The notes beneath the pieces are model-generated. The model searched no databases, was not told where the DNA came from, and worked only from the letters and a program-made list of their open reading frames with translations. DNA of 64,000 bases from a virus. Positions 2,227-58,774 of the stretch are shown in pieces (within the stretch, counting starts at the first letter, position 1; each line of letters starts with the position of its first letter). The stretch spans positions 2,414-66,413 of the IMG/VR virus record IMGVR_UViG_3300036791_000759; one strand, written 5' to 3'. The position numbers and the translations under genes were made by a program.

Positions 2227-3315
2227 ATGGCAGGTCAGTTGATCCCCCTTGACCGCCCGCCGCCTGCGCTCCGCAACCGCCGCTCCAACCTCCTCGCCGC
2301 CGCCAAGGCCGGTGTCCAGGGTGGCTTTGCCGTGGTCGGTTACAAAGGCCGCGCTTGGAAGCTGCGCTACCGTAGCGCCGACACGCTGCTGCGTGACGAT
2401 CGCGGGGCACCGATGCCCAACCTGGAGGTGGTCATCGTCGGGGTCGCCGAGGGGATATCCAAGCAGTACTACGAGAAGAACTATTCCGAGGGTGATGACA
2501 GCGCACCCGACTGCTGGTCGCTCGATGGGGTCAAGCCGGATGCCAGCGTGACTCGCAAGCAGAACGATCTCTGCGGCAACTGCCGCCACAATGCGTGGGG
2601 ATCGAAGATCACCGAGGGCGGCAAGCGTGCCAAGGCGTGCCAGGATACCCGGCGTCTCGCCATCGTCCCGTCGGGTGACATCGAGAACGAATCCTTTGGC
2701 GGTCCGATGATGCTGCGCCTCCCGCCGATGAGCCTCAACAACCTTGCCAACTATGCAGATCTGCTACAGCGCAAGGACGCATCCTTTGAGGTTGTCGCGA
2801 CACGGCTAGGATTTGACTATGACGTGGCGTACCCCCGGATCACCTTTGAGGCAATGGGCTGGCTCTCACCCGAGCAGCTTGCTCTGGTCCTCGGTCCCGA
2901 TGGTAACGGCGGTGTCTGCGCCGATCCGTTGATCGAGCGCATGCTGGGTGCTACGCCGGTAGCCGATCCTGACGAAGAGGCAGAGCCGGCACCGGCACCA
3001 AAATCCACACCAAAGAAGCGCGCTGCCGCGACACCGGAGCCACCGCCCGAGCAGCCGGGCGAAGAAGAGAGCGAAGAGACCGAGGTCGAAGAGGGCGAAG
3101 CCGACGATCTCGGCAACACGCCTCCGCCTCCGCCGCCACCGCCTCCTGCGGCCGCGCCAAAGAACCCGTTTGCCGCCGCGACCGCGAAGGCCGCGCCGGC
3201 CGCGCCAAAGCGCGGGCGTCCGCGTGCGAGCGGCGCTACCAACGGAGCCGCTGCTCAGCCGCAGCCCGCGCCGTCAAACATGGAAAGCGCGATCCACAAT
3301 CTGCTTGATGCCTAG
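2227..3315 (+). CDS. Putative single-stranded DNA-binding/annealing protein with acidic Pro-rich tail
   Basis: GGAG RBS; PDCWS..G..P and CxxCxxNAWGS motifs typical of phage SSB-like proteins beside Pol A/SNF2 genes; acidic low-complexity C-terminus. Confidence 0.65.
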   Translation: MAGQLIPLDRPPPALRNRRSNLLAAAKAGVQGGFAVVGYKGRAWKLRYRSADTLLRDDRGAPMPNLEVVIVGVAEGISKQYYEKNYSEGDDSAPDCWSLDGVKPDASVTRKQNDLCGNCRHNAWGSKITEGGKRAKACQDTRRLAIVPSGDIENESFGGPMMLRLPPMSLNNLANYADLLQRKDASFEVVATRLGFDYDVAYPRITFEAMGWLSPEQLALVLGPDGNGGVCADPLIERMLGATPVADPDEEAEPAPAPKSTPKKRAAATPEPPPEQPGEEESEETEVEEGEADDLGNTPPPPPPPPPAAAPKNPFAAATAKAAPAAPKRGRPRASGATNGAAAQPQPAPSNMESAIHNLLDA

Positions 3316-3323
3316 TTAAACTC

Positions 3324-3366
3324 AGGGGGTGCGACCGGGTCCAAACCGCGCCCCCTCTTTTTCTTT
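3324..3366 (+). terminator. Rho-independent terminator after SSB-like gene
   Basis: AGGGGG...CCCCCT stem followed by CTTTTTCTTT. Confidence 0.6.
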
Positions 3367-3380
3367 AGGCGGCGCGTGAG

Positions 3381-6299
3381 ATGCTCGATGCAGAAGAGTA
3401 TTTAAACCGCGTCATACCCGCCGGAAACTTCCTCTGCTTTGCCTACAAAGATCCAGCCTGGAAGTTTATGGCGCATCGGTTCTGGCCCCGCGATCAGGTC
3501 GCGGCGGCGGTCAGCTGGATGCGCTACCTCAGTCACAAGCTCGATGTCTGGATCGCTGTCGCGAGCTACCGGGAAGCACGACCCGACGGTACTGACCGCA
3601 TCAAGGTGCCAAAGTTTAAGGGGAGGCGCACGGCTGACAACGCGGCGGCGATCCAGTGTTTCTTTTACGACGCCGACATTAAGCGTGAGGGTGACGGCAA
3701 GCCCCCTGAGAAAGCCTATGCCGACGATGCCGAGCTGACCCTATGGCTCAAGAAGCTGCGCGACGAACACCAGGTGCCACTGCCCAATCTGTGGGTCCGC
3801 AGCGGTTACGGTGTGCATCTTTACTGGGTGATGGACAAGGCGCTGGAACGTGACCGCTGGGCACCCTACGCAGAGGCGTTCAAGCAGCTCCTGGTGCGGT
3901 CGGGCGCCAAGGGGGACATCGGGGTCAGCGGCGACATCGCGCGCATCCTGCGCACACCGGAGAGCTGGAACCACAAGGTGCCGGAGAACCCGGCCCAGTG
4001 CTACGACATGACCCCCGAGCAGCTAAACCTACCGGCGTTCTACCCGACGCAGGATATGCTGCAGCTACTCGATAACTACCGTAGCAACACTAAAAGCGAG
4101 GGGTTGAATGGCGCGGCGCCACCACGTGCCACTCCGCGCCTTGACTTATTGAACGCAGCCAGGGCCGGGCTCGAACGCAGCCCGCACGACATGGCGCGGA
4201 TCGCCGCGCACTGCCCCCAGGTCTGGCGCAGCCACGAGGAGCATGGCGCGGGTGATGGCCGCGAGCTGTGGCACCTGATGGTCAACCTGGCCTACGCCTG
4301 TCGCGACCGCGAGTGGGCCCACCGGCTGGGCGATGCGCACAAGACCTATTCGCGCGGGGACACCGACGCCAAGTACGACCAGACAGAGGCGGAGCACACC
4401 AAGAAGGATTTTGGGGCACCGTTCTGTACCAGCTTTAACACGGCGCGGACGGGGATCTGCACCACCTGCCCGCACTGGGGTCAGATCGACACCCCGTACT
4501 CGCTGGGGATCGAGACTGATGACACCGGGTTGCCGCCAGGTTACCGCCGGCACGACGGGTGGATCGAGGTCGAGGTCGAGCGCAAGGATGAAGGCACATT
4601 CTGGCAGCGGCTGATCCGTGGGGATGTCGGTGCGCCGCTGCTGCTGGCGCTGTCCGATGGAGCCTATCGGCTGCAGTTCGACTACACCCGCGCGGACCGG
4701 ACGAGCCGCGTCGTCGTCGACGAATCAGAGTTATCGCCCAAGGCCGACACCTTGATGCGATTTTTTGCGAAATGCGGCGTGTCTCTCAATCGAAGCAATG
4801 CTTCGGCATGGGGCGATTTTATGAAATCTTGGATCGAACACCTGCGCGACCAGTGCGCCGCGCAGGAAGCACCGCCATCGTTTGGCTGGATGCTCGATAC
4901 AGAAGAAGACGGTTATGCCGGCCTGGCCATCGGGGGCATTTTCTACGCCACCGACGGCACAACAAAGCCTGCCTTGCTGGGTGACCCAAAGATTCACCAG
5001 AGCTACGTCCCGCGCGGCACGCTGGCAGGATGGCAGGATGTCGCCAGCTTTGTCCTCGACGAGCGCCCCGAGCTGCAGGTCATCGTCGGCGCGGCGTTTG
5101 CCGCGCCGATCATGGAGTTTACCGGGGTCTCTGGGTGCATGAGTGTGTGGTCAAGACGGTCGGGAGCGCGCAAGTCGAGCGCCTTTGCGGTAGGCACCTC
5201 GGTGTGGTGCAACCCGCGCACCGGGATGTCGGCGCTGCGCGACACAACCAACGCGGTCCAGCACTCGCTCGCCGAGACCAAGTTTATGCCGGTCTACTGG
5301 GATGAGATCCACACCATCTCAAAGGATCACCTGGCCCAGATGATCGAGAATTTTTTTAACATCACGCAGGGCCGGGGCCGCGCCAGACTGGACTCGCGCA
5401 TTCAGGCCCGTGAGGTCGGGCAGTGGCGCACGCTCTTTCTCACCAGTTCCAACCGGCCGCTGGCTGAGCTGATCGAGCGCGACAGGGTAATGACCGACGC
5501 CGGCAGCGTGCGGGTGTTCGAGTATCAGATCGAGCCGCAGGGATTTGCCGTCGCCCATGCTGGCACGATCGTCCAGGGTGTCGAGCGGCACTATGGGCAG
5601 GTCGGCCGGGTCTATGCCGCCTGGGTCGCGCAGCACTGGCAAACGGTGCGTGATGCGATCCTCGGTACGATCCAGAGCATTGACCAAGATTGCGGCGGGG
5701 TTGAGCCGTCCGAGCGGTTCTATGTTGCTACGGTAGCAGCAATTATTGTTGGCACCGGCGTCGCTAAGAAGCTCAAGCTCTATGACTTTGATGTTCAAGG
5801 GATCTATCAGCTCCTGATCAATAAGCTCCTGGAGCAGCGCCGAGCACGCATCGAAGCAACCCCGTTGGATGATCGCGAGCAACTTGCCTTGACTTTTAAT
5901 CGCTTTTGTGAGGACAACACCGGGGCGCTGCTCGTCACCCAGGCTTTTGCCAAACCGGGCCCGAGAACAGCGACAACGATCAACGGCGAGAAGTTTATCC
6001 TGCATCAGCCACTGCCCAACGTCGCGGCGGCGATGATCCACATCGGGCTCGACGACACCGAGGTGCGCTTTAACCGCACGGCGTTTGAGAAGTGGTGCTT
6101 TGACCACCACATCCCCGCCAAGCCAATGCTCTCGCTCATGTATAAATGCTGGGGAGCCGTCGAGACCAGGGCGGAGATCGCACGCGGGACCAACTACACG
6201 ACGGGCAGTATTGTTTACCGTGTGTGTATCTCGCTTACTCAGCCGGAACTACAGCATCATTTATCAATGTGGGGGAAACCAAATGGTGGTGCCCCATGA
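3381..6299 (+). CDS. Primase-helicase (RepB/AEP-like primase, Cys-rich domain, DUF927-like helicase)
   Basis: SGYGVHLYW and DIARILRTP primase motifs; C..H..CxxC cluster; P-loop-like SGARKS, Walker B VYWDE, LTSSN sensor. Confidence 0.85.
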   Translation: MLDAEEYLNRVIPAGNFLCFAYKDPAWKFMAHRFWPRDQVAAAVSWMRYLSHKLDVWIAVASYREARPDGTDRIKVPKFKGRRTADNAAAIQCFFYDADIKREGDGKPPEKAYADDAELTLWLKKLRDEHQVPLPNLWVRSGYGVHLYWVMDKALERDRWAPYAEAFKQLLVRSGAKGDIGVSGDIARILRTPESWNHKVPENPAQCYDMTPEQLNLPAFYPTQDMLQLLDNYRSNTKSEGLNGAAPPRATPRLDLLNAARAGLERSPHDMARIAAHCPQVWRSHEEHGAGDGRELWHLMVNLAYACRDREWAHRLGDAHKTYSRGDTDAKYDQTEAEHTKKDFGAPFCTSFNTARTGICTTCPHWGQIDTPYSLGIETDDTGLPPGYRRHDGWIEVEVERKDEGTFWQRLIRGDVGAPLLLALSDGAYRLQFDYTRADRTSRVVVDESELSPKADTLMRFFAKCGVSLNRSNASAWGDFMKSWIEHLRDQCAAQEAPPSFGWMLDTEEDGYAGLAIGGIFYATDGTTKPALLGDPKIHQSYVPRGTLAGWQDVASFVLDERPELQVIVGAAFAAPIMEFTGVSGCMSVWSRRSGARKSSAFAVGTSVWCNPRTGMSALRDTTNAVQHSLAETKFMPVYWDEIHTISKDHLAQMIENFFNITQGRGRARLDSRIQAREVGQWRTLFLTSSNRPLAELIERDRVMTDAGSVRVFEYQIEPQGFAVAHAGTIVQGVERHYGQVGRVYAAWVAQHWQTVRDAILGTIQSIDQDCGGVEPSERFYVATVAAIIVGTGVAKKLKLYDFDVQGIYQLLINKLLEQRRARIEATPLDDREQLALTFNRFCEDNTGALLVTQAFAKPGPRTATTINGEKFILHQPLPNVAAAMIHIGLDDTEVRFNRTAFEKWCFDHHIPAKPMLSLMYKCWGAVETRAEIARGTNYTTGSIVYRVCISLTQPELQHHLSMWGKPNGGAP

Positions 6300-6694
6300 C
6301 TACTGAGATCCTCACCCTAAACGAAGTCGCAACAAAATATAAATTCAGCGAGCGTTGGGTCCGCGACTTCATCCGCGCTCGCAACATCCCTGTGCTGCGA
6401 AGCAAAAACTTTATCCGCTTTGATCAGCACGCCATCAACCGCTTTGAAGAGGAGCTGCGTACCCCATGTCGCACCTTAAAGTTAGAGAACGAGCCGATCG
6501 CCCCGGCACCTTCCAGATCACGGGAACGGTCCCAGGGTATGACCGCCTACGACAGACTGCTAAATCGACCACCAAGAAACTCGCCAACGAAGAAGCCGCC
6601 ATCCTCGAAGCCCGCATGCTCCGAGAAGCCTTCCACGGCAAGCCCAACGGTCGTGCCGATCGCTGGTTTGCCGAGATTGCCGAAGCTTACTTGA
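6296..6694 (+). CDS. xis: Excisionase-like HTH protein with long tail overlapping the integrase
   Basis: ATGA overlap with primase stop; LTLNEVA..YKFSERWVRDFI..IRFD is a MerR/HTH_17-like excisionase pattern; directly upstream of int. Confidence 0.7.
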   Translation: MTTEILTLNEVATKYKFSERWVRDFIRARNIPVLRSKNFIRFDQHAINRFEEELRTPCRTLKLENEPIAPAPSRSRERSQGMTAYDRLLNRPPRNSPTKKPPSSKPACSEKPSTASPTVVPIAGLPRLPKLT

Positions 6695-7578
6695 ACTTTG
6701 AAGATCGCCACCCGGCGCAGGAAGCACGGGTCGTGGCGGTCAGCAAGGCGCTAGGTGACATCAAAGCAAGTGCGGTGACCCAGGATGTCGTAGACGGGTT
6801 GCGCGCGACGATGTTCAAGCGAACCAGCAAGCCGGCACGTAACAGCATCAAAGCATTTATCGTGATGCCGATTAGCGTCGTCTTGAACTTTGGCTGGCGG
6901 CGTGGTTGGTGCAACAAGGTCGGGTTTGAGCTGCCAAAAGAGAGCGCCGAAGAGAAGGAATCTAAACGCCCGAAAGTCCTCCTGCCAGTCGAGGCATGGG
7001 CACTCGTCGACGCCGCCGTACCACATTTGCAGCCGATCCTCATGACCATGTTTGGGATTGGCTCGCGGGTCGCTGAGACGCTCAACATTGATTGGAAGAA
7101 TGTCGACCTGATGGCAGGGAGGGTATCTTATATCCAGAAGGGTGGGCGTTGGCGCCACGGCGTTTTGTTGCCGCCCGCCGTCGTTACCGCGCTGGCTAAT
7201 CTGCCCGGTCCCCGAGAAGGCAAAGTCTTTCTCAACACGCGCGGCCGGGGTACGCGCGGGCGCCATGCGTATAAGCCGCGCCTAACCGGCGGCCAGATCA
7301 GAAGCGGGTTTATCGGGGCACTAAAGCGAGCTGGTCTTTCCGGTCGGGATATCACCCCGCATGACTGCCGCCATAGCTATGCGAGCTGGCACATGGCGAT
7401 CTGGAAGAACCCACTCAAGCTAAAGGTTGATGGTGGATGGGACAGCACCGCGACGCTGGAAATTTATATGCACCTCATTCCCGAGGGGCACGAAGCCGAG
7501 ATCCTCAAATTTTGGGGCTATCGTGTCGATGACACCAAACTGGCACCAAGCATCCGGGAGATACTATTAAGTGCTTGA
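6466..7578 (+). CDS. int: Tyrosine integrase
   Basis: Catalytic residues R (GSRVAE), K (QKGG), HxxR (HDCRH), W (GGW), Y (LEIY). Confidence 0.93.
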   Translation: MSHLKVRERADRPGTFQITGTVPGYDRLRQTAKSTTKKLANEEAAILEARMLREAFHGKPNGRADRWFAEIAEAYLNFEDRHPAQEARVVAVSKALGDIKASAVTQDVVDGLRATMFKRTSKPARNSIKAFIVMPISVVLNFGWRRGWCNKVGFELPKESAEEKESKRPKVLLPVEAWALVDAAVPHLQPILMTMFGIGSRVAETLNIDWKNVDLMAGRVSYIQKGGRWRHGVLLPPAVVTALANLPGPREGKVFLNTRGRGTRGRHAYKPRLTGGQIRSGFIGALKRAGLSGRDITPHDCRHSYASWHMAIWKNPLKLKVDGGWDSTATLEIYMHLIPEGHEAEILKFWGYRVDDTKLAPSIREILLSA

Positions 7579-8062: not shown

Positions 8063-8208
8063 CAGAGGATCCTCAAGGTGTGGAGAACCAGAAACCAGAG
8101 CAGGAGCGAAAACACAAAGGCCCCGAGCAGACCCCATCTGCGGTGGGGCCTGTGCTCATGGTTGTTGTCTTCGTTGACGCTAGCCAGGTGGAGGGCGAGG
8201 CGGCTCAT
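8062..8208 (-). CDS. Small single-pass membrane protein, 48 aa (not in ORF track)
   Basis: AGGAGG RBS; MSRLALHLASVNEDNNHEHRPHRRWGLLGAFVFSLLLWFLVLHTLRIL. Confidence 0.6.
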   Translation of the reverse strand: MSRLALHLASVNEDNNHEHRPHRRWGLLGAFVFSLLLWFLVLHTLRIL

Positions 8209-8248
8209 GTGGATCCTCCTAGTGTAGGAGAACTATATTATAGGTCCA

Positions 8249-8433
8249 CTAGAATGACCGCAATGCAGAGCGTCGCCGGCGCCCAAAGAAGTTGTGGATC
8301 GATGGGCGCAGCTCGGCTTCGAGCATGCGCTCCCGCAGCTCGTCGCAATAGCGCCGCTCCTCCTCGATCTCCTCCTCGGTGAGGTCGTAGTAAGCCACCT
8401 CGGGAGGGCGGTTGCTACCGTAGCTACTGGGCA
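8249..8433 (-). CDS. Hypothetical charged protein (start uncertain)
   Basis: Open frame YYDLTEEEIEEERRY fills the gap downstream of the giant virion gene. Confidence 0.4.
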
Positions 8434-11400
8434 AAGCGGCCTGCTTGCTGCATGTCGCGCAGCTGCTTCGGCGGCACGCGCAGCCCATAAGTGCCGGGGG
8501 TCATCACGGCGCGCTGGCGCTGGGTCAGCGCGTCCTTGATCTGCGGCATGGTGATTGGGGTTGACGGGTGGTCGCGGTTGTATTGCCAGATCATCGTCAT
8601 CGCCGCGCCCCGGTCCTTCGGGTCGGCGTTGAGGTAGGCGTTCATCGCCCGGCTGCGCCCCTCCAGGGTCTCGTCGCGCAGGTCGATCTCAGCCTGGCGT
8701 GCCTCGCGACCCGAGGACACATCCGACGGGTTGAACCCAAGCCCCTTGGCGACCGCGTCATAGGCCGAGACCGGCGGCAGGATCTGCCGGCCCTGCGTGT
8801 CGGTGACCCCCTGATTATAAAACCGGTACGCCTGCATCACATCGTGGACCGGGCGCGGCATCAAACTCTCGGCCGCCTTCCCCCAGTTCCCGCCGTTGAG
8901 GATCTGGCTGAGCCCACTCGCGACCTGGGTCAGGTTATCACCCGCCGCGCCGGTCATCGCCGCACCCAGCGTCGCCATCAGGTCTTTCGACTTGAACGAT
9001 GTGATCTCTGGCAGGTCCACGGCGTTAGCCAGCTTAAGAGACCGATGCAAATCCACTCTTGCCAGTGTCGGCAAACCGCGAGCGATCACTTCGCTCGCGG
9101 TTTTTCCGTAATGGTCCCGGGTCCAGTTGCGCACCGCATTTTCCAGGTCAGCCGAAGTGTGCGGCTTCTGGTCGCCGCTAAAGAGATCGTAGAGCCCGAG
9201 GCCGACCGCGAGAGGCAGCGAGCCAAAGACGCTGGCGGTGACCCCCGAGAGCAGTGCATGGCTCGTCAGGATGGCGCCCAGCGCCTTGACCGCCTCGCTG
9301 CGGCCGCGCCCGCCACCCGTATAGATGTCGTGCGCCAGGTTGCCCATCAGCGAGTACATGTGCATCCCGTAGAGCTTGTACTGCAGGATGGGCCCGCCCA
9401 GCGCACCCAGCTTGCCGACCAGGCTCGGCCGGTTGTGCAGGTTGTAGTTGGGCATCGCCTCGCGCGCGGTCTGCACCGCGTAGTCAACCGCCTTTCCGAC
9501 ATCACCGTTTGATTTGCGCATCTCCAGGTCGAACGCCGCCTTGGCGATCGCCGTGCGGTTCATGCTGTCCACCGCGTGCTCGCCGGCGGCAAACATATTC
9601 ATCACGCCGGCGGGCAAGCCTACGGCTTTGCCGTACTTGCCGCCAAAGTCGAACGATCCCGAATCGCTCGCCATGCGCTGGATCTCGCGCACCATCGAGT
9701 GATCGACCAGGCCGGCGGCGTTGAGCGCGTTCATCAGCTGGTTGGCGTGGGCCTCGGGCATGCCGCGCTGAACCATGCGGTCCCGGTAGAGGGCGCTCGT
9801 GTTCCAGTCAGAGTTCTGGATCTCCTGCTTGATTGCTTTCATCGCGTTGCGGCCGCCGGTGCTGAGCGCGGTCCCAGCCAGGTCGCGAACGGCCTTACCC
9901 AACGAAACACTGGCGGCACCAAACCCGTGTCGCGCCCCCATGAGGCTCGTCGCGTTGGAGTGCGCGTCGGCGAGCTGCACCACCATGTGCGCCGGCCGCA
10001 TCAGGTTCATGATGAACGAGAAGGTGGAGAGCGCGTGCGGCGCGCGCCCAAGGATGCCGCCCGAGTTATCGACCGGCCGCAGCCGGTTGCGCATCTCGTC
10101 GCGGATCATGCCCGCCCGCTGCAGATCGGCGCTGTTCACGGTGTCGCCGCTCCGGCGCATTCCGTCGAGGTGCCGGTCCATCGCATCGAGCGCATTAACC
10201 TGGGTTGCGCCGTGCTTTAACCACCCCATCCGCGCGCTGTAGGCGAGGAAGTCGTTGGCCAGGTTCCTCGCCTGGTCGGTCGACGCACCCAGCACACCCT
10301 CGCGTCGGGCACGCAGCGCGTTGGATTGGTTCCGCGTGCCGGCGCGCAACTGCATCTCGGCATAGGCATCGAGCGCACGGTTGCGCTGCGCCTCGGTGAG
10401 CCCCGCCCGATCAAACGCATCGGAGAGCTGACCCAGCGACCCGGCGGAGTTGCGCACCTGGTCCTGCTGCGAACGCAGGAAGACCCGCGAGACTTCTTCC
10501 TCTTTATACCCCTCGCTGTTGAGGAGTTCCTGGCGTCGCGCCTGCGCCTGGCTCTCACGCTCGAAGAACTCGACGCCATAACGCGGACCGCCGCGCTCGC
10601 CATAGCGGACGATGTAGTCGCCGTACCGGCGCAGCGGGAAGTAATCCCCACGCACATAACCGGCCCGCTGCAAGCGGCCGATCTCGCGCACCACATTGCG
10701 CGAGTTCTGCCATCGCTCACCAAACGCCTGCGCCACCGGCGAGGCGTCGGGGTCGTCGATCATCTTCTGGATACCCTCGCGGGTGCGCACCTCGCCTGTG
10801 ATCGACGCGCGCTGCGCCGGTGTGCTGTCGGGCAGGAAACTCTGCATCGCGTGATCCAGCTCGGCCCGGCGCTCGGCGTTATAGGTCTCGCGGTAGTAAT
10901 CCCGCAGGTTCCGGTAGGTCTCCTGGCCACGCTGCCCCAACGCCTCATAGCGGTCGTTGAGCTGCTTGAGGCGCGCTTGGCTCTCCTCGGTCGTCAGGTG
11001 CGCGTTGGCGCGCGGGTCGCGATCCCCCAGCCTGGCCTCGGCCAGGGTCGCATCATTCATCAGCTGCGCAACCTTAGCGCCGTCGGCACCCTCGCGCAGC
11101 CGCCCGACCATGCGCTGGATAAAATTGCCGTATTTGTCGCGCTCGTCCTTGGTCGCCGCCGCCCTGGCTTCGACCGCCGTGCGGTAGTCGGTGAGGGAAT
11201 TACCCGGTGCTTCCTTGTCACGGCTCTCGAAGAGCCTCCGACCAAAAGAGTGGATCGCATCCAGATTCGCCACGTTGAGCGCACCCCGGAAGAGCGGGCG
11301 CGAGGCAAAGTCCCTGAGTATCTTCCGCCCCGCCGCTGTCGCCTCAGACGGCGCCATCAACGGGTCATCGACCGCAACCCGGTTCAGATCCTCGGTATGC

Positions 11401-47551: not shown

Positions 47552-47672
47552 TCGCAGAGGACAGCGCGCAAGCGCTGTAATGCGGCAGACAGGTTCCAAG
47601 CCCTGTCAGAAGGCATAATAAAAACGACCGCACATTAGTACTACCGTAGCAACAGGAAAGGAAGTATTTAAC

Positions 47673-48854: not shown

Positions 48855-49013
48855 TCTATAGCTGCTATAGTATGAGCATCGCCGGGTGCGTTCGCGCCCG
48901 GCGGTGATCAGCCTCAGACGTAGCCGAGGTTACGCCTGAGGGTGATCACCCCCGATCACCTTAATGCTACCGTAGCAACGCTGCGCCCGGTAGGCGCAGT
49001 AGAGAGGGAGAAC

Positions 49014-50307: not shown

Positions 50308-50538
50308 ATGAGCGCGCGCACGCTGACCCTCTATCGCGACGACAGCACCGTACAGGTGGTCTACGAGCGCGTGAAGGCGGTCTTTTGGACAGCCAACAAC
50401 ACTGTGCTCGTGGTGTCTCAGTTCACCGACGAGGCAAGCGGCGCACATCGCTACATCCACTGGCCGCGCGAACGGTTCTGCTGGTTCAAAGACGAGCCTG
50501 GCAAGGCTGATGCGCTGGCCGATGGAGGGGCGGCATAA
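50308..50538 (+). CDS. Hypothetical protein
   Basis: Compact ORF in early arm. Confidence 0.55.
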   Translation: MSARTLTLYRDDSTVQVVYERVKAVFWTANNTVLVVSQFTDEASGAHRYIHWPRERFCWFKDEPGKADALADGGAA

Positions 50539-50576
50539 CAACCGTCCTGATTCATCGCCATTGGAAGGAAACGGAC

Positions 50577-50855
50577 ATGACCGCAATTGATGATCTGAAA
50601 AACAAAGTGACGCGCCTCAGGGATGAGCTTCAAGACGCCGAAACAAAATTGATTAATGCAGTCCGCGAAACCGCACCGTTTAAAGTCGGCGATGTATGGG
50701 TCGACAATCGACGTCGCCAAGGCAAAATAACGAGAATTTTGGTTTCCTATAACTTCAAGCCAGAAGCGCATCTGACACTATACAAGAAAGACGGCAGCCT
50801 CGGCGTTCGCGAAATACCCGCTTTCTCGTGGGATGGCTGGAAGCCACTGCCATGA
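50577..50855 (+). CDS. Hypothetical protein
   Basis: AAGGA RBS; PFKVGD..KKDGS SH3-like pattern. Confidence 0.7.
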   Translation: MTAIDDLKNKVTRLRDELQDAETKLINAVRETAPFKVGDVWVDNRRRQGKITRILVSYNFKPEAHLTLYKKDGSLGVREIPAFSWDGWKPLP

Positions 50856-51006
50856 CCGCCTCTATCACCGGGCGACAGACTGAGCAAGCCTATCGGCGTT
50901 AGTTCTGCTGAACTGCCCATCCATAGTGGTGGGCAGCTAGCAGCACTAAAGACTGCGAATAAAAACCGCCACACATAAGTACTACCGTAGCAACTGGAGA
51001 AACAAA

Positions 51007-52362
51007 ATGGAGAGGTTACCAAAGTTGGCGAAGCTAACGCCAGCTCAGGAACAGGCAATGGTCGAGGGCCGCATGGCCTTTATGGATGATTGCCCGTTCT
51101 TTGCCCATTATTACTGGGACCAGCTGAAGGAATATCCGACGTATGACTTTGATACGGCGGCGACCGACAGCCGGCGGGTGTTCTTTAACCCCGAGTATAT
51201 GGCCAAGCTCACGCCGCTCGAACGGGCGTTTGTGCTGGCGCATGAAACCGATCATGCGATCAGCAATCACCCGACGCGGATGAAGTATTACCGTGAGACG
51301 ACGATCCTGCGCGGATTGCCGTTTGATGGTCAGTTCTTCAATGTCTGCGCCGACTATTCGATCAACGCCCGTCTGATCACAGCCAAGGTCGGGTCGTGCA
51401 ATCCCGAGTGGCTCTACGCGCCCGATGTGGACGGCACAGAGCTGCCCGAGGATGTCTACGTCAAGAAGTGGCAGAAGCCGCCACCGCAGCAGCCGCAGCA
51501 GCCGACACAGCCCGGTCAGGGACAAGGCGGCGGCGGTCAGTCGGGACAGGGACAAGGCGGTAGTTCTCAACCGCCAGGCCAGACCTATGGCCAGGTTAAG
51601 AAGGGCGCCAACCCCGACAAAATCGCCAAGGCCAATGGCGGCAGCTTTGATCAGGTGCTCGAACCGTTCACCGATCCGGTGACCGGCGCGGAGGATATCC
51701 CGGGAGAGACCGAGTTCAAGGAAGCCATCGGCAGGGCCGCTGCGGCGGCCAAGGCGGTGGGAAAGATGCCCGGGGTGTTCCAGACGATGGTGGACGAGAT
51801 ACTCGAACCACAGGTTACCTGGACCGAGCATATCCGCATGCTGCTGACCGGCACCATCGGCCGGCGCAACGAGACCTGGAACACGCCCAACCGCAGATAT
51901 CTGCCGCTGGGGGCGCCGTTCCCGGGTCGGCCGCCGATGATCTTTCTGCCGAGTAAGCGCGGGTATGGCGCGGACTTGGTAGCAGTGGCGATCGATTGTT
52001 CGGGATCGGTCAGCAACGACGAGCTGCGGGTGTTTCTCTCCGAGGTCGGTGGGGTGATCGCCGACTGCAAGCCGCGCCGGGTCATGCTGATCTGGTGCGA
52101 TGCGCGGATCCAGCGGATCGACGAAGCCAGATCATTGGACGATCTCGCGGATATCCGGGTCAAGGGTGCGCCGGGTCGTGGGGGAACGAGCTTTCATCCA
52201 CCGTTCGCGTATCTCGACGAAGAGGGGATCGTGCCCGACACGATGATCTACCTCACCGACATGATGGGTAGCTTTCCCGAGGAGCCGAGGTATCCAACAG
52301 TGTGGTGCGCGACCAGCGACATCAAGGCGCCGTTTGGTGAAACCGTAAGGGTAAAGGTGTGA
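51007..52362 (+). CDS. DUF2201-type metallopeptidase plus vWA domain protein
   Basis: TAATD, VLAHETDH (HExxH), AIDCSGS MIDAS, GGTSF, YLTD. Confidence 0.88.
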   Translation: MERLPKLAKLTPAQEQAMVEGRMAFMDDCPFFAHYYWDQLKEYPTYDFDTAATDSRRVFFNPEYMAKLTPLERAFVLAHETDHAISNHPTRMKYYRETTILRGLPFDGQFFNVCADYSINARLITAKVGSCNPEWLYAPDVDGTELPEDVYVKKWQKPPPQQPQQPTQPGQGQGGGGQSGQGQGGSSQPPGQTYGQVKKGANPDKIAKANGGSFDQVLEPFTDPVTGAEDIPGETEFKEAIGRAAAAAKAVGKMPGVFQTMVDEILEPQVTWTEHIRMLLTGTIGRRNETWNTPNRRYLPLGAPFPGRPPMIFLPSKRGYGADLVAVAIDCSGSVSNDELRVFLSEVGGVIADCKPRRVMLIWCDARIQRIDEARSLDDLADIRVKGAPGRGGTSFHPPFAYLDEEGIVPDTMIYLTDMMGSFPEEPRYPTVWCATSDIKAPFGETVRVKV

Positions 52363-52363
52363 G

Positions 52364-53170
52364 ATGCCGAATTTCGAGCTGAGCGACGACCATCGGTCGT
52401 CGCTGCGAGGTGTGTGCCGCCGTCTGTGCGAGGTGCGTACCCTGACAATGGAGCAGGGATTTCCACTATCACAGGAGGATGTCCAGCAGGGGATCTTACC
52501 AGCGGAGATGCGCGATCTGTTTAACAGGCTGAAGGCGATGGGCGCCGAGTCGGTGCGAAACACCAGGAGCCCGTCGTTCTTTGTCGGTGGCGAGGGGATC
52601 GATCGCGAGGTGGCGATCAATATCACCGGTGTGCAAAACCTGTGGTATGCCTACGAAATCCAGGATGGCGCCTATGTGGCCGGGGAACAGATCAAGCAGC
52701 GAAACGAGAAGTTTGACAAAAAGCTGTTCTTCAACAACGCGGTGTTAGCTCCCGAGACCTATAAGAAACTGGTCAGGTGGATTAACTTAGGTGTTCGCGA
52801 GCATCGCCAGGCGGCACTGTTGAACGAAACCCTGGTTAGATTTCTGCATCATTCAGGCATGACACTGGGGCACATCATCGCGCGCTGGCCGGGGTTGACC
52901 CTGGTGTTCGACGAGATGGACCGGGGGGGCTATATTAGCAGCCGCTCAAAGAACAGCTGGCGCGACCGGGTACGCCAGCTCCCGGCCACTAAGAACCGCT
53001 GGGGCTGGCCGGCTTACGGCGATGCTGCAGTGTGGTACGAGAAGAACAAAAAGATACTGGCGGTGTGCGATGAGATGCTGGTCGGCGCGGCGCAGCTCGA
53101 CCGCCCCCACACGCCGGGCATGGCGGCGCGGATCGTCGGTTGGCGCCGCAAGGAGGGAGAAAAGATATGA
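52364..53170 (+). CDS. Hypothetical protein
   Basis: 268-aa ORF immediately after the vWA gene. Confidence 0.75.
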   Translation: MPNFELSDDHRSSLRGVCRRLCEVRTLTMEQGFPLSQEDVQQGILPAEMRDLFNRLKAMGAESVRNTRSPSFFVGGEGIDREVAINITGVQNLWYAYEIQDGAYVAGEQIKQRNEKFDKKLFFNNAVLAPETYKKLVRWINLGVREHRQAALLNETLVRFLHHSGMTLGHIIARWPGLTLVFDEMDRGGYISSRSKNSWRDRVRQLPATKNRWGWPAYGDAAVWYEKNKKILAVCDEMLVGAAQLDRPHTPGMAARIVGWRRKEGEKI

Positions 53171-53502: not shown

Positions 53503-53970
53503 GTGGCTGTGTCTGGTGATCTACTCATAGACCATGACGGGTACTACGCGCCGGCTTGGCGTGGGTCAGCAGGCGCCAGGCCGCCGCTTTACCGGCTTTG
53601 GACTAATATCAGGAACCGCTGCAATAACATGCGTACCCACGATTACCGTTATTACGGTGGTCGTGGGATTAAAGTCTGTGCCCGATGGGACAACTTTGAT
53701 GCGTTCGCGCACGACGTAGGTGACTATCCCGGTAAAGGGTGGACGCTCGATCGCATTAACAACGACGGCAACTATGAACTGGGCAATGTGCGCTGGGCAA
53801 CGCGGCGTACTCAGGCGCGCAATAGAAATTATTGTGTATTAACTAAATATGACGCAGACAAAATACGTAGATTGTATGATGAAGGTATAATTCAAACTGA
53901 ACTTGCAGTAATGTTTAATGTGCATCAAGCACATATTAGTGCTATTATTAGAAGGATTATTTGGAAATGA
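53503..53970 (+). CDS. Free-standing HNH endonuclease with C-terminal HTH
   Basis: YRLW..NRC..YGGRGIKVCARW..TLDRINNDGNYE..NVRWAT; lower GC than flanks. Confidence 0.88.
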   Translation: MAVSGDLLIDHDGYYAPAWRGSAGARPPLYRLWTNIRNRCNNMRTHDYRYYGGRGIKVCARWDNFDAFAHDVGDYPGKGWTLDRINNDGNYELGNVRWATRRTQARNRNYCVLTKYDADKIRRLYDEGIIQTELAVMFNVHQAHISAIIRRIIWK

Positions 53971-55847
53971 TAATCAGTGGGGATTTCGAGACGACTTTTA
54001 CAAAAGAGTATTCGCTCTCGAAACTCTCCGAGGTCGAGTACATCCTCGACCCCCGCTTTCAAGCGATCATGCTCAGCCTCAAGTTTGGTGATCGTCCTTC
54101 GCAGGTGCATATCGGCGAAGCAGCGATCGCCAAAGCGCTTGCAGAGATCGACTGGGCCAACGTTGCCTGGCTTTCTCACAACACCAGATTTGATGGCGCC
54201 ATCCTCGCATGGCGCTTTGGCCATGTGCCCAAGATGTACCTGGACACGCTGTCGATGGCGCGGGCCACGACGCACTGGTATCTCGGCAGCTCCAGCCTCC
54301 GCCGGGTCAGCGACTGCCTTGGCTTGCCGCCCAAGGGCAACGAGGTTGAGAACGCCATCGGCAAGCGGCTGGAGGATTTCACCCCCGCCGAGCTGGACCG
54401 CTACGCGATGTACTGCATGCGGGATAACGATAACTGCCGGGAGATCTTTGACCAGCTGCGGGCGTATTTCTGCGGCGAGGAACTGCGTCTTATCGACCTG
54501 GTGATGCGCATGTTTATCCTGCCGCAGATCCAGCTCGATACCGAGATCCTCAAGGATCACCACGCCCATGTCGTGCGCGAGAAGCAGAAGCTCTTAGCCT
54601 ATGTGGAGACCATCGATCCGATAAGGTTTAGCTCGAACCAGCAGTTTAAGCAGCTGCTCGAAGAATACGGCGTCGAGGTGCCGATGAAAACCTCGCCCAC
54701 CACCGGCGAGGCAATCCCGGCGTTGGCGCGGGGCGACTGGCAGTTTAAGGAATTACTGGCCGACCAGTCTCAGCCTCATGAGGTTCAGGCCATCCTGGCA
54801 GCGCGTGTCGCGGTCAAATCAACATTGGAAGAGACCCGCAGCTTCAAGCTGTGGGAGTTGTCTAAGACCGACTGGCCGCGTCAGGGACGGGGCTGGGCCC
54901 CGGTGCCGCTAAAGTATTATGGCGCGCGGCCGGGCCGGCTCGCCGGCGACGGCGGGATGAACTGGCAGAACATCATGCGCGGCTCGCCCATACGTAAGGC
55001 GATCAAGGCGCCCCCGGGCATGCGCATAATCCACCGTGATGCGTCGCAGATCGAAGCCAGGATGGTGGCCTGGCTGGCGGTGTGCATCCCCCTCGTCGAG
55101 GCGTTCGCCGCCAGGCGCGATGTCTACTGCGAGTTCGCGTCGATCGTCTACCAGCGCCCGATTACCCCTAAGGATGTGAAGGAGCGCTTTGTCGGCAAGA
55201 CCTGCATCCTGGGGCTGGGCTATGGCTGCGGGCCGCCACGCTTTCGCCACATGCTCTTTATCGGTAACGGCGGCATATCGGTGGCGATCGAGCCCGAGGA
55301 GGCTCAGCGGATCGTCTATAGCTACCGTAGCAACTACCCCGAGATACCGGATCTGTGGGGCCAGGCGCAGACCCTGCTGCGCCTCATGGCCGAGAACGAC
55401 CGGGCCGATCCCAAGACGCTTGAGCGGTTGCTGTTTGGCCGGGCCAAGCTGACACCGCTTGAGGCGATGCTGCAGCTGCCCAACCGGATGAAGATCTACT
55501 ACCCCGAGCTGCACTGGCAGGACGACCAGATGGTCTACAAGAGCGCGCACGGGGCATGGCGCAAGATCTATGGCGCCAAAGCTATCGAGAACATCTGCCA
55601 GGCGCTGGCGCGGATCGTCGTGACCGACGCTGCGGTGCGCGTCTACGAAGAGACTGGCTACTACCCGTTCCTCACCACCCACGACAGCTTGGACTACTGC
55701 GTACCCTTGGACGAGGCCGAGGCAATGGATGCCGAGCTGGAGCGCCAGTTCGCGCTGGTGCCGACATGGGCCCAGGGGCTGCCGCTGGCCAGCGAGGGCG
55801 GTTGGGGCGCGACACTGCACGATGCCGAGCAGAAGGTGAACGCATGA
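53967..55847 (+). CDS. DNA polymerase family A with 3'-5' exonuclease
   Basis: DFET ExoI, HNTRFD ExoII, YCMRD ExoIII; DASQIEAR motif A, RFVGKTCILGLGYG motif B, THDS motif C. Confidence 0.93.
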   Translation: MIISGDFETTFTKEYSLSKLSEVEYILDPRFQAIMLSLKFGDRPSQVHIGEAAIAKALAEIDWANVAWLSHNTRFDGAILAWRFGHVPKMYLDTLSMARATTHWYLGSSSLRRVSDCLGLPPKGNEVENAIGKRLEDFTPAELDRYAMYCMRDNDNCREIFDQLRAYFCGEELRLIDLVMRMFILPQIQLDTEILKDHHAHVVREKQKLLAYVETIDPIRFSSNQQFKQLLEEYGVEVPMKTSPTTGEAIPALARGDWQFKELLADQSQPHEVQAILAARVAVKSTLEETRSFKLWELSKTDWPRQGRGWAPVPLKYYGARPGRLAGDGGMNWQNIMRGSPIRKAIKAPPGMRIIHRDASQIEARMVAWLAVCIPLVEAFAARRDVYCEFASIVYQRPITPKDVKERFVGKTCILGLGYGCGPPRFRHMLFIGNGGISVAIEPEEAQRIVYSYRSNYPEIPDLWGQAQTLLRLMAENDRADPKTLERLLFGRAKLTPLEAMLQLPNRMKIYYPELHWQDDQMVYKSAHGAWRKIYGAKAIENICQALARIVVTDAAVRVYEETGYYPFLTTHDSLDYCVPLDEAEAMDAELERQFALVPTWAQGLPLASEGGWGATLHDAEQKVNA

Positions 55848-56541: not shown

Positions 56542-57083
56542 TGGCGTGCTACGCGGATGATCTGACAACGCAAATTCGCAAACTAGCCGAAACCTTCGCA
56601 TACCCTCTCCTCAGCGGGCGTGATGGACAATGGACGGCCGAGGAACTTGAGCCTGTTTTGAGCGAGTTCGTGACCGCCGTCCGCGCCGCACCCGGCCCGC
56701 CGAGTGAGGCAGATGTCGAGCGCGTCAGAAGTGCCATCATGGGGGTGGGCGGTTGGTATCCGGCACAGGAAACCAATGTTGCAGTGGCAACCCGTATAGC
56801 CCGCGCCGCCATCGCTGCTATGGGGCAAGTAACAGACCCGACCCCGCCAGCGAGTGATCTGAGTGATGCCGCAAAGGCTTGGTACACATACATTGATCTT
56901 GAGCCGACCGTTCACGGGAAAATCCAAGGTCTTGCCGCCGTCCGCGCCGAAGCCAAGGCCGAGCAGCACGCAGCGGATGTGAAGATGCTGCGAGACAATA
57001 TGCACCTGTTCCTTCCCATTCATGAGGGCCTGGATGTGGCGCGGCGCATCGCCGACTTCCTCGAACAGAGAGGGCCAAAATGA
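56541..57083 (+). CDS. Hypothetical protein
   Basis: TGATG coupling. Confidence 0.6.
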   Translation: MACYADDLTTQIRKLAETFAYPLLSGRDGQWTAEELEPVLSEFVTAVRAAPGPPSEADVERVRSAIMGVGGWYPAQETNVAVATRIARAAIAAMGQVTDPTPPASDLSDAAKAWYTYIDLEPTVHGKIQGLAAVRAEAKAEQHAADVKMLRDNMHLFLPIHEGLDVARRIADFLEQRGPK

Positions 57084-57742
57084 GTTTCGCCTGGAGCTAC
57101 TCGCGCCTCAAAAATTTCGAGACCTGCCCGAAGCGGCACTACCACTACGACATCGCCAAGGATATCACCGAGGAGGAGTCGGGCGCGCTGCTCGAAGGGC
57201 ACGACACCCACAAAGCGTTTGAGCTGCGGGTCTCACGCAAGCAGAAGCTGCCACCAAACCTGGCGCGGCACGAGAGCTGGATCCAGATGCTGGTGAAGCC
57301 ACCGGGTTTTGCCTATGCCGAGCAGAAGCTGGCACTCAACAGCTTTTTTGAGCCGGTCGGGTTCTTTGCCGACAATGTGTGGTTCCGCTGCGTGCTCGAC
57401 TTCACCAAGGTGATGGACAGCTTTGCCGTGGTCGTCGACTACAAGACCGGCAAGGTGGGCGACGACGACACCCAGCTGTCGCTGCAGGCGGCGACGGTCT
57501 TTCACACCATCCCGGCGATCAACCGGGTGCGATCGGGGATGGCCTTTGTCAACTACGATAAAGTTGTCAGCAAGGTTTATCATCGTAGCGATATCCCGTT
57601 GATCTGGAACAAGATGTTGCCGCGCGTCAAGAAGTACGAAGCGGCGATGCACCATAAGGAATACCCACCCACCCCGTCGGGTCTCTGCGTCAAATACTGC
57701 GGGGTGGTGAGCTGTCCCTATCATGGGAAAGGAACGCGGTGA
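57080..57742 (+). CDS. PD-(D/E)XK (Cas4/RecB-like) exonuclease
   Basis: WSYSRL..CP..G..H..E..D..DYKTG..Q..CxxCxxxxC. Confidence 0.88.
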   Translation: MSFAWSYSRLKNFETCPKRHYHYDIAKDITEEESGALLEGHDTHKAFELRVSRKQKLPPNLARHESWIQMLVKPPGFAYAEQKLALNSFFEPVGFFADNVWFRCVLDFTKVMDSFAVVVDYKTGKVGDDDTQLSLQAATVFHTIPAINRVRSGMAFVNYDKVVSKVYHRSDIPLIWNKMLPRVKKYEAAMHHKEYPPTPSGLCVKYCGVVSCPYHGKGTR

Positions 57743-57900: not shown

Positions 57901-58064
57901 AGGCGCCTGACCGCATGGTCTCAAAGACCGAGGCTGCGTTCGAGCACCCGGCCAAGGGGCCACACCACTGTTCGCAGTGTACTCACTTCAAGGTCGGGCG
58001 CTGCGAAGTGGTGCGCGGGTTTATCTCGCCGCTTGACTGGTGCAAGTACTGGCAACGGAAATGA
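57897..58064 (+). CDS. HiPIP-like 4-Cys putative Fe-S protein, 55 aa (not in ORF track)
   Basis: MKAPDRMVSKTEAAFEHPAKGPHHCSQCTHFKVGRCEVVRGFISPLDWCKYWQRK; ATGA overlaps at both ends. Confidence 0.75.
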   Translation: MKAPDRMVSKTEAAFEHPAKGPHHCSQCTHFKVGRCEVVRGFISPLDWCKYWQRK

Positions 58065-58243
58065 TGCACGATGCACTACCGATAGAAGCTACGCTTATCC
58101 GCGCAGCAAAGGCGCGGATTCTCTCGCTTGAAAGTGAGATTGAGAGTTACCGTGTCGATGACCCTGAGCGACGCCGATTACAAACTCGTTTGACTGAAGA
58201 ACGAAATAATCTCACCTGGCAACTTCGGAGACTCCAGGTATGA
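58061..58243 (+). CDS. Small coiled-coil protein
   Basis: ATGA coupling. Confidence 0.6.
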   Translation: MMHDALPIEATLIRAAKARILSLESEIESYRVDDPERRRLQTRLTEERNNLTWQLRRLQV

Positions 58244-58581
58244 AAACCGTCGTTTCCGAGGCGAGAGTAAAAGTTAAAATCAAAAAAGTCCTCGATAATT
58301 ATAGGAGCTATATATATTATTACATGCCCGTACCAGGTGGGTACGGGCGATCGACACTGGATTACTTGGGGTTCTGCTGCGGCTTGGGGTTTGCCATTGA
58401 GGCAAAGAGCAGTGTTGGCAACCCGACAGAGCGCCAGCTGGCAATCATGCAGCAGATCACGGCGGTACACGTCCCGGTGTTTATCGTGCGCGATGACGCA
58501 TCACTGGCGCAGTTGGATCAATGGCTCAACACGGTCACGACCAAATGGCGGGGGCGACATGAACCAAATAATGCTGCGTGA
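58240..58581 (+). CDS. VRR-NUC nuclease
   Basis: E..VK..GYGRSTLD..FAIEAK..PTERQ motif. Confidence 0.85.
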   Translation: MKTVVSEARVKVKIKKVLDNYRSYIYYYMPVPGGYGRSTLDYLGFCCGLGFAIEAKSSVGNPTERQLAIMQQITAVHVPVFIVRDDASLAQLDQWLNTVTTKWRGRHEPNNAA

Positions 58582-58774
58582 GCAGCTGCAGATTGCGATT
58601 GACTGGCCGTGGTGTCTGCATCCGGTCTACCGGATCCAGTGGACACGGGGGTTTCACGGTGGGCTGGAGCATCGCGCCGGCACCCGCAACGACCGCAGGT
58701 TCAAGCGGGTTGCTACCGTAGCAAAGGAAGCGAGCAATGAAGCCGAGACAGGTGAGCATCGTTCCGCTGCCTAA
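58559..58774 (+). CDS. Hypothetical protein
   Basis: Fills gap between VRR-NUC and next gene. Confidence 0.45.
   Translation: MNQIMLREQLQIAIDWPWCLHPVYRIQWTRGFHGGLEHRAGTRNDRRFKRVATVAKEASNEAETGEHRSAA

Follow-up and report, generated by a model that had tools for sequence, protein, structure and literature searches.

The closest published analogue of the element described here is the 17-bp palindrome of the Cluster O mycobacteriophages, TGTTCGG-N3-CCGAACA, which has invariant arms and occurs in 34 copies in Corndog (PMC4351075). About one third of these palindromes lie inside genes, their function is given there as unknown and the phages are not obviously temperate; the same account contrasts them with the asymmetric, oriented stoperators of Cluster A and with the start-associated sequences of Cluster K (PMC4351075). 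Here we analyse an array of this kind in a 64,000-nucleotide stretch of a virus record (IMG/VR IMGVR_UViG_3300036791_000759, positions 2,414 to 66,413; hereafter the window), in which 18 copies of the 15-bp palindrome TTGCTAC-S-GTAGCAA (S, C or G) run through the whole genome. The array is real, strongly selected and clade-wide. With a probability of roughly 0.45, we read the 18 sites as a genome-wide operator array that would serve a phage-encoded, symmetric DNA-binding protein co-evolving with them.

The Cluster O palindromes and ours share dozens of copies with invariant inverted arms, a genome-wide distribution with one denser region, many intergenic copies beside a part that is intragenic, and the lack of a meaningful orientation (PMC4351075). 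They differ in that the Cluster O phages are siphoviruses of Mycobacterium, of another lineage and with another sequence, and in that five closely related phages share one motif there, whereas in our clade the motif differs among relatives and the positions are kept. In addition, Cluster O sites are not closely linked to start codons while many of ours are, and host rarity and even spacing were measured for the arrays of our clade, unlike in that account (PMC4351075). Cluster A stoperators (L5 gp71) resemble our sites as short elements placed along the full length of a temperate phage genome, in and between genes, and are thought to silence transcription genome-wide; however, they are asymmetric and oriented with transcription, whereas ours are dyad-symmetric and without polarity (PMC4351075). 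A homologue of the stoperator repressor did not turn up in our phage, where no search aimed at one was made. The OB sites of plasmid RK2, from which KorB silences genes globally, have the core TTTAGC-G-GCTAAA, a 13-bp palindrome with a central S, and are dispersed, some of them far from promoters (PMC11790492), on a replicon of similar size. Our element, like parS and OB sites, is a short palindrome dispersed over its replicon (15-17 bp, central S, 18 copies). KorB is a ParB-family CTPase clamp (PMC11790492), whereas no ParB-like domain was found in 41 Pfam-scanned proteins of our phage, a scan that left out about two dozen small open reading frames (ORFs) and could miss divergent members. The repeated motifs of the Nostoc phages A-1 and N-1 are asymmetric (PMC4916379). 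A narrow literature search found nothing on dyad arrays in this phage group; invariant palindromes dispersed through phage genomes are a known kind of element, which, to judge from Cluster O, is still unexplained in function (PMC4351075).

The final 4,017 bases of the window are a copy of its first (0 mismatches, period 59,983) and the source is a 66,413-base record with redundant ends, so the window represents a single genome, circular or circularly permuted, with a length of 59,983 bp and a G+C content of 60.5%. The core RCTACSGTAGY matches 19 times in the window, which makes 18 unique copies, as the match at 62349 (site 62347-62361) is a wrap-around duplicate of the match at 2366 and no extra copy. 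All 18 coordinates listed in the original prediction were correct (the 15-bp starts are the centres minus 7). By chance, 0.06 copies are expected from 100 dinucleotide shuffles (largest 1), and 0.296 from a codon-preserving shuffle in which synonymous codons were permuted per curated gene and intergenic DNA was also shuffled (largest 3; at least one copy in 258 of 1000 shuffles). No other 9- or 10-letter word of the genome is more over-represented. The central base is C or G in every exact CTAC-N-GTAG (CTAC-W-GTAG, 0 copies) and cores with one mismatch, of which there are 10, stay within background (29 total matches including the 19 exact ones, against 11.65 expected); the site class is all-or-none and sharply bounded. 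From the 36 half-sites we derived the consensus G-TTGCTAC-S-GTAGCAA-C, with an invariant centre of 9 bp and 60-85% conservation further out, and both arms share one half-site matrix, the mark of a dyad-symmetric site. The sole perfect 15-mer is 58710-58724; the outer arms are imperfect in 17 of the 18 sites, and exactly one arm is perfect in 15 of them. Relative to local transcription, the better arm lies downstream at 9 sites and upstream at 5, and a consistent polarity is absent. As a post-hoc observation, the perfect arm is the right one from 46718 through 58717 to 4080 and the left one from 5732 to 46398, with 31019 as an exception, and the changeover, at 46.4-46.7 kb, falls where the early promoter and an AT-rich region lie.

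The symmetry of the site does not reflect pairing between its arms. At variable mirrored positions, complementary pairs are as frequent as predicted from the marginal frequencies, both in our phage and in three relatives (G007, G004 and Rhizobium phage RHph_TM27A), and the same holds for the inner spacer positions of 11 relatives with GTTAC-type motifs. The invariant CTAC-S-GTAG could form a hairpin of at most 3 pairs with a 3-nt loop, and the motif of G004 has no spacer at all. Since the arms do not covary, it is the sequence that is selected and not an RNA or DNA stem; and since the half-sites vary independently, the two-fold symmetric reader put forward in the original prediction, a protein that would recognise each half-site in duplex DNA, is the simplest fit.

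To see how far the array extends, we compared 18 genomes, comprising ours, 16 IMG/VR contigs in full (given G numbers here) and RHph_TM27A; of the 17 others, 11 are complete or almost complete. A search for over-represented dyads that presupposed no motif, together with direct listing, revealed arrays in 15 of the 18, with 9-46 copies of a lineage-specific dyad. Our 18 copies of TTGCTAC-S-GTAGCAA are matched by 21 of CTACTAC-N-GTAGTRG in G007, 27 of CCACTAG/CTAGTGG in G004, 9 of CACTAC-N1-2-GTAGTG in G003 and 10 of TTAC-TAC-S-GTM-GTAA in G008, while (G)TTAC-N7/8-GTAA(C) occurs in ten genomes (TM27A 46, in the form GTTACCT-N4-AGGTAAC; G014 43, G018 39, G012 38, G013 23, G019 22, G010 21, G011 18, G021 15 and G009 11). 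The form found in G008 joins both motif types, so that all look like diverged versions of one ancestral dyad. The three genomes without an array (G005, G006 and G020) are close kin; they hold 3, 4 and 0 GTTAC-type matches and no other enriched word. Our exact core occurs only 0-4 times in the relatives, and an IMG/VR scan for the exact 15-mer gave mostly single chance-level matches, the only kin being L072, which belongs to the same contig as our close relative L005. A separate observation from IMG/VR is a 12,667-base contig, L090 (61% G+C, apparently unrelated), whose non-coding end packs four similarly built 15-bp palindromes into 470 bp (11619-12090), two of them TTGCTAC-S-GTAGCAA and two TTCCTAC-S-GTAGGAA.

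While the word changes, its positions are kept. The local motif is found at residues ~170-175 of TerS in ours (V-A-T-V-A), G007 (35206, T-T-V-V) and G004 (20204); at the 5' end of gene g48942 in ours, G007 (23555) and G004 (9212); and, in the same three genomes, in the gap ahead of an ATPase gene and at the VRR-NUC/helicase junction. It also occupies residue ~453 of the family-A DNA polymerase (PolA) in ours and G007 (18695, same codons), residues ~190-290 of the primase in ours, G003, G004 and TM27A, and the gap after the capsid gene in ours and TM27A (5845), with a G004 site nearby (27969). Kept positions with changed words point to a conserved function and to a reader that would change along with the word, and thereby to a phage-encoded reader. 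That the reader is encoded by the phage had been proposed from the window alone, and the comparison, together with the rarity of the words in host-type genomes described below, supports it. These natural specificity swaps, in which the motif changes and the positions stay, would allow the reader to be sought by co-variation and the function to be probed by an exchange of motif and reader; with 488 related IMG/VR stretches, cultured Rhizobium phages and Bradyrhizobium prophages at hand, the clade makes the question more tractable.

Within our genome, nine of the 18 cores lie fully inside coding sequence (CDS) and nine do not, although non-coding DNA makes up only 11.5% of the genome (binomial P = 6e-5; the curated gene set covers 88.5%); sites favour intercistronic gaps and gene junctions. 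Ten coding copies had been claimed earlier; two of their contexts, the ORFs at 8249-8488 and 58337-58774, are doubtful overlapping ones. Site 1 (2364-2378, GCGCTAC-C-GTAGCGC) lies in gene 2227-3315 (codons LRYRSAD), whose orthologues align without a gap; the earlier label SSB for this gene found no backing, as it matches only PHROG families of unknown function. Two sites lie in the primase-polymerase/helicase gene (3381-6299), namely site 2 at residues ~232-236 (4073-4087, TAACTAC-C-GTAGCAA) and site 3 at residues ~782-786 (5725-5739, TTGCTAC-G-GTAGCAG). Site 5 (13619-13633, TTGCTAC-C-GTAGCAC) falls in the giant gene (8424-15509, minus strand), in which G004 has a site at residue ~640; site 6 (18422-18436, TTGCTAC-C-GTAGTAA) in the last codons of the lysozyme-domain gene 18406-20157, 22 nt before the start of gene 15472-18402 (minus); and site 7 (25294-25308, TTACTAC-C-GTAGTAT) in the internal virion protein gene 24287-26035. 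Site 9 (38645-38659, TTGCTAC-G-GTAGCAC) occupies residues ~170-174 of TerS, 90 nt before TerL, site 15 (48964-48978, ATGCTAC-C-GTAGCAA) the 5' end of gene 48942-49910 or, with an alternative start, a position 38 nt upstream of it, and site 17 (55319-55333, TAGCTAC-C-GTAGCAA) residues ~454-458 of PolA (Y-R-S). The reading frames given earlier proved right: primase and TerS read VATVA, the giant protein GATVAT, the lysozyme-domain gene YGSN and the internal virion protein TTVV, and YRS is the reading in the 2227 gene, in primase and in PolA.

The other nine sites mark gene boundaries and non-coding DNA. Site 4 (8412-8426, TTGCTAC-C-GTAGCTA) covers the stop codon of the giant gene, and site 8 (31012-31026, TTACTAC-C-GTAGCAA) is intergenic, just 3' of the major capsid gene, where it adjoins a near-copy of a second palindrome treated at the end. 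Site 10 (44885-44899, TTGCTAC-G-GTAGCAC) lies in a divergent intergenic region, 89-93 nt upstream of gene g44981. Site 11 (46085-46099, TTGCTAC-C-GTAGTAA) and site 12 (46391-46405, TTGCTAC-G-GTAGTAA; kept in L005) share a 660-bp non-coding region (45790-46454) with terminator-like hairpins, an AT-rich low-complexity tract and, on the flanks of site 11, half-sites. Site 13 (46711-46725, TAACTAC-G-GTAGCAA; central T in L005) stands between the stop codon of a ribbon-helix-helix (RHH)-like gene and gene 46743, 20 nt before the ATG; site 14 (47638-47652, GTACTAC-C-GTAGCAA) right behind a twister-P5 ribozyme, with the ATPase start 23 nt further on; site 16 (50979-50993, GTACTAC-C-GTAGCAA; equivalent to G004 6964) 16 nt before the start of the DUF2201 gene; and site 18 (58710-58724, TTGCTAC-C-GTAGCAA), the perfect 15-mer, 15 nt before the start of gene 58737-59009. 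Six sites of our genome precede a Shine-Dalgarno (SD) sequence and start codon by 15-38 nt. At site 12, which lies ahead of the rightward early operon, TTGCTA forms the -35 element of a sigma-70-like promoter, TTGCTA-17-TATAGT (46391-46419, plus strand).

The intragenic copies are informative in another respect. Wherever orthologues could be aligned across the site codons, no indel was found (four of four sites, centred at 2371, 5732, 25301 and 55326), and in PolA, for example, the site codons read Y-R-S against Y-R-N/G/T in orthologues. Around the sites at 4080, 13626, 18429 and 48971 the stretches are too divergent for alignment across the site, and for the one at 38652 the alignments with G003 and G007 run gap-free into the site but stop within it. 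A conserved, gap-free protein under the copies means that, in the testable cases, they arose by substitution and not by insertion, and that selection acts on DNA through codon choice. This, with nine CDS cores against ~0.3 expected genome-wide, upholds the earlier view that DNA and not protein is under selection. Compared with L005, the five aligned 15-bp sites carry 1 substitution against 3.0 expected, too few for significance.

Taken as an operator array, the double-stranded sites G-TTGCTAC-S-GTAGCAA-C would be recognised by a two-fold symmetric phage protein that co-evolves with them. Bound at promoter-proximal and intercistronic copies, this protein would occlude or block RNA polymerase, while copies within long genes would keep the coverage continuous. 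Control of the whole phage or prophage, most likely its silencing, would then work through a word nearly missing from the host chromosome. We favour this reading for its fit to a word restricted to phage DNA, a temperate setting, the overlap of one site with a -35 element, the many sites at the heads of cistrons and the continuous coverage; that the sites bind protein, that the reader is a dimer, that transcription is affected and that there is a link to lysogeny is what we infer from this pattern. Several observations weigh against it. The symmetry gives the sites no polarity, unlike true stoperators, and seven copies lie deep in genes, where a promoter operator is not needed. The -10-like hexamers just upstream of many junction sites were judged by eye only, and a spacer of N7 or N8 within single GTAAC-type genomes is unusual for a rigid dimer. 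RHph_TM27A has 46 sites and no recognised integrase, which leaves a lysogeny-specific role insecure. Among the 63 proteins sent to family searches, we found neither a ParB/KorB domain nor a repressor family beyond a small XRE protein, and the even spacing of the sites fits DNA-metabolic roles equally well. If the sites are global silencing operators, stoperator and KorB logic would extend to symmetric sites in proteobacterial podoviruses.

Sites tile the genomes. The coefficient of variation (CV) of the gaps between sites is 0.68 in ours, in line with the original claim that the whole genome is covered, and 0.40-0.88 in 13 of 14 array genomes (G012, at 1.12, is the exception); in 13 of 14 the spacing is also more even than the random median. 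In 5000 random trials, a CV as low as the observed one was reached in 0 trials for G010 and in fractions of 0.001 for G018, 0.007 for G007 and 0.063 for ours. The plasmid RK2, at 60 kb, carries 12 OB sites.

Such even tiling is also what recognition or loading points for a DNA-metabolic machine would give, one that primes, nicks, recombines or packages DNA every few kb on both strands without controlling transcription; we consider this rather unlikely, but it fares best among the alternatives. In its favour, intragenic copies occur in the longest genes, where an intergenic slot is absent, the class is all-or-none as enzyme recognition sites are, and one copy lies inside TerS at a conserved position, where the pac sites of headful phages are often found. 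The GTTAC-type genomes also have in common a small HNH-like protein (Pfam HNH E 0.015, below threshold), which, however, is not detectable in ours-type genomes. Moreover, the three genomes without an array (G005, G006 and G020) still have the helicase, PolA, the exonuclease, TerS/TerL and, at 43% identity over residues 1-205, the N-terminal domain of the primase, so none of these replication and packaging proteins tracks the arrays, and the preference for gaps before start codons and the overlap with a -35 element would go unexplained.

The words are rare in host-type genomes, that is, in bacterial assemblies which serve as stand-ins and may not be the window phage's host. A 7.9-Mb Bradyrhizobium assembly contains CTACNGTAG 9 times and the reversed control word 337 times, and in two other assemblies that hold relatives the counts for CTACNGTAG are 12 against 185 and 39 against 331. 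The strict GTTAC-N7/8-GTAAC dyad occurs 11 times in the 7.9-Mb assembly (control 19), and 10 of the 11 lie on phage contigs, five on one with a capsid homologue and five on one with a PolA homologue, with the remaining one elsewhere; the motif could therefore serve as a compact signature for spotting prophages of the clade in host assemblies.

A word nearly exclusive to phage could also act as a mark of self, by which a phage machine, possibly a module of a MoxR-type AAA+ ATPase and a VWA-metallopeptidase, tells phage from host DNA for protection, exclusion or takeover. In one form of this idea, which we hold to be unlikely, a fast-evolving reader and the co-inherited module would load at the host-rare dyad every 1-3 kb, so that phage DNA is distinguished for protection, compaction or takeover while motif and reader turn over together at fixed positions, and the sites would not be classical operators. 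The general form strikes us as a little less probable again. Besides the rarity of the words, it draws on the distribution of two early genes, the AAA_5-like ATPase (47673-48854, plus; PHROG 1297, Atlas neighbours AAA_5-type) and a DUF2201 metallopeptidase and VWA protein (51007-52362, plus), which are the only proteins detected in both motif types and absent from the array-less genomes. Both were detected in 11 of 15 array genomes and in none of three array-less ones; at least one is present in 12 array genomes, and both in all nine records at least 90% complete, in TM27A and in G008. The four array genomes without the detected pair are incomplete contigs, G018 with DUF2201 only and G019 and G021 with neither among them. 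Against this, the array-less three are close kin, so that the pattern amounts to a single evolutionary contrast, and no DNA-binding domain was seen in the ATPase or the DUF2201 protein. We know of no system of this kind for comparison; if true, a self-mark or loading array would be a new principle of phage genome organisation.

About equally improbable, in our view, is that the sites are promoter-associated elements for an activator, or for a factor that appropriates RNA polymerase, through which early and middle genes are switched on singly. The position of the six sites in ours and of many in G003, G004 and G007, 9-47 nt before SD and start codon, would suit this, as would the near-consensus -10-like hexamers (TATAAT, TAAAAT, TATAAA) seen by eye a few bases upstream of several sites, and a lineage-specific motif is what phage promoter sets show. 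Family searches of the phage proteins found no RNA polymerase, so the host polymerase would have to be directed. But palindromic symmetry is unexpected for such elements, copies stand mid-gene in primase, PolA, the giant protein and the internal virion protein, TM27A has copies at convergent gene ends (12720, 45686), and the tiling would remain unexplained.

A hairpin acting in RNA, for processing, stability or translation control at cistron junctions, is a poor candidate. Between cistrons, sites do stand shortly ahead of ribosome-binding sites, in TM27A-type genomes the SD can be part of the 3' arm AGGTAAC, and the ribozyme directly 5' of site 14 implies that mRNA is processed there. However, the arms do not covary, the invariant 9 nt of our motif guarantee just 3 pairs between otherwise imperfect outer arms, the G004 motif lacks a spacer, copies are also found where genes converge and far inside genes of both strands, and no ribozyme was found in G003 or G007. 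Rfam likewise returned no family at the sites, and no terminator-like hairpin coincides with one. Least credible of all are selfish mobile mini-elements, similar to repetitive extragenic palindromes (REP) or miniature inverted-repeat transposable elements, or sites of a host protein: the copies are dispersed, identical short palindromes and GTAG/CTAC also marks REP elements, but the four testable intragenic sites are free of indels, genomes with different motifs keep the positions, host-type genomes are depleted of the word and no transposase family was found among the 63 proteins searched.

Which protein would read the operators we can only rank roughly. The largest share of our odds, though short of even, goes to something other than the candidates below; the g44981 family is a tentative first among these, the RHH-like protein is doubtful, the XRE protein more so, and g42982 very unlikely. 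The three binders named in the original prediction, RHH, XRE and winged helix-turn-helix (wHTH), lost ground in the comparisons. The RHH-like protein of 78 aa (46455-46691, plus) is encoded by the first gene of the rightward operon, with sites on both sides, and G007 and G004 have RHH-like genes at the equivalent place. It matches RHH_5 over the full profile at E 0.08, below threshold (the positional equivalent in G004, E 0.083), and its monomer model is all-helical, the strand being expected only in the dimer. A word-based search found no homologue beyond the protein itself, and a three-seed hidden Markov model (HMM) recovered only its own seeds; searches of PDB sequences gave no match for this protein, the ATPase or g48942. 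L005 differs from our genome by 4.0% over 9.7 kb and retains all six sites of that stretch, one with a central T. Its RHH protein (8149-8292) has only 42% identity to ours over 48 aligned residues, while the other proteins of the stretch are 87-100% identical, apart from a doubtful overlapping ORF (44563-44943, 69%). A swapped RHH protein with an unchanged motif speaks against RHH as the reader. The RHH gene appears as a hot spot of allele replacement, with the flanking sites kept. Homologues of the wHTH protein g42982 (42982-43470) are found in G005 and G006, which lack an array, and what this protein tracks instead is the second palindrome, TATAG-N3-CTATA. The XRE protein (42713-42985) has no homologue in the 17 other genomes, though the array is clade-wide.

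The helical 268-aa protein g44981 (44981-45787, plus) is 100% identical in L005; its gene stands alone, bounded by site 10 and a strong terminator-like hairpin (45809-45837). Its family counts 323 representatives in a library of 1.84 billion proteins, and the family HMM detects members in all five ours-type genomes and in none of the GTTAC-type or array-less ones. In four of the five, a motif copy lies 9-93 nt upstream of the member; the G003 member starts 574 nt from the contig end, and the 400 nt scanned there hold no motif. With the structure model (pLDDT 79), Foldseek gave no match at E <= 0.001 and VIA a best Z of 7.8, which is in the range common for helical models; Pfam gave no match at E up to 5. 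Matches to sigma-factor chains (E > 1, TM about 0.17) were taken as noise. The phiC31 repressor c is a temperate-phage repressor that recognises one conserved inverted repeat at many loci, but the g44981 family shows no homology to the repressor c family (PF25746; hhalign probability 0.15%, with an Atlas hint of 0.80 at chance level). Further points of comparison are the operators of P1 C1 and the centromere sites of N15, which are dispersed. The first early gene of TM27A (18372-19100) has no similarity to g44981, and a 104-aa TM27A protein that looked by eye like an OmpR-type winged helix received no support from Pfam. NCBIfam and PADLOC returned nothing for 10 early proteins, and the primase was rejected as reader, its N-terminal domain being present in array-less genomes.

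The temperate setting of this soil phage shows in a tyrosine integrase (6466-7578), the provirus classification of G009 and relatives on bacterial-assembly contigs. A portal-alignment search gave the 488 related IMG/VR stretches (best 80 loci retained) and, in addition, 7 in bacterial assemblies (two of Bradyrhizobium, a Xanthobacteraceae metagenome-assembled genome and others). Of the named phages, RHph_TM27A/B, TM29 and TM3_14A of Rhizobium come closest, with synteny and 50% identity in the portal, and a blastn search with 8 kb of the genome against GenBank phages found no match. In the annotation table of RHph_TM27A (L121) no integrase was recognised; the GenBank 'putative integrase protein' at 42248-45331 is a homologue of our primase/helicase (27% identity, 94% of the query). 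The stretch is contained as contigs in only three soil-metagenome DNA runs, one of which may be its source, with no RNA run listed.

The annotation further includes a helicase (59006-61486), PolA (53961-55847), a RecB-type exonuclease (57080-57742), large terminase, portal, major capsid, tail fibre and internal virion proteins, and the small XRE helix-turn-helix (HTH) protein treated above. The giant polyvalent virion protein (2,361 aa) has an LPD39 domain, and its C-terminal part matches DarB-like antirestriction PHROGs; the protein is not an RNA polymerase. An HNH homing-type endonuclease with a C-terminal HTH (53503-53970, plus) lies directly 5' of PolA and overlaps its start, with homologues only in G005, G006, G009 and G010. 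The early module (47673-53170, plus) comprises the AAA_5-like ATPase, g48942, small ORFs, the DUF2201 protein and g52364.

The AT-rich low-complexity tract near sites 11 and 12 (ATA/TAA runs, 46100-46330) lies between the g44981 terminator and the early promoter, close to the minimum of the cumulative GC skew (44-48 kb), and could be a replication origin or attachment region. Upstream of sites 13, 14 and 16, by 12-15 nt, we noticed an A-rich/CA-rich context, AATAAAAAC-N3-5-CACA (46681-46710, 47612-47637, 50953-50978), and G004 has a similar A-rich tract ahead of its site 6964. The twister-P5 ribozyme (Rfam RF02684; 47553-47605, plus) was found over the full model with 59.3 bits (gathering threshold 37.6, E 8.7e-10); it occupies the gap that separates ORF 47372-47551 from the ATPase gene, with ATAATAAAAAC and site 14 coming directly after it. 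The ORFs that overlap it are 100% identical in L005, and Rfam detected no ribozyme in G003 or G007.

The second palindrome, (TC)TATAG-N3-CTATA(GA), has 6 copies in its form with 5-bp arms against 0.013 expected. Its shorter version ATAG-N3-CTAT occurs at 2199, 20163, 38105, 44566, 46415, 48858 and 58301, with a near-copy at ~31033; the copies are placed at the starts of genes and between divergent genes, and two of them border on the first motif. There are 7 of them in our genome, 5 in G005, 6 in G006 and 5 in G020, and 0-1 elsewhere. L005 carries an additional copy of this palindrome in an insertion ahead of its RHH gene.

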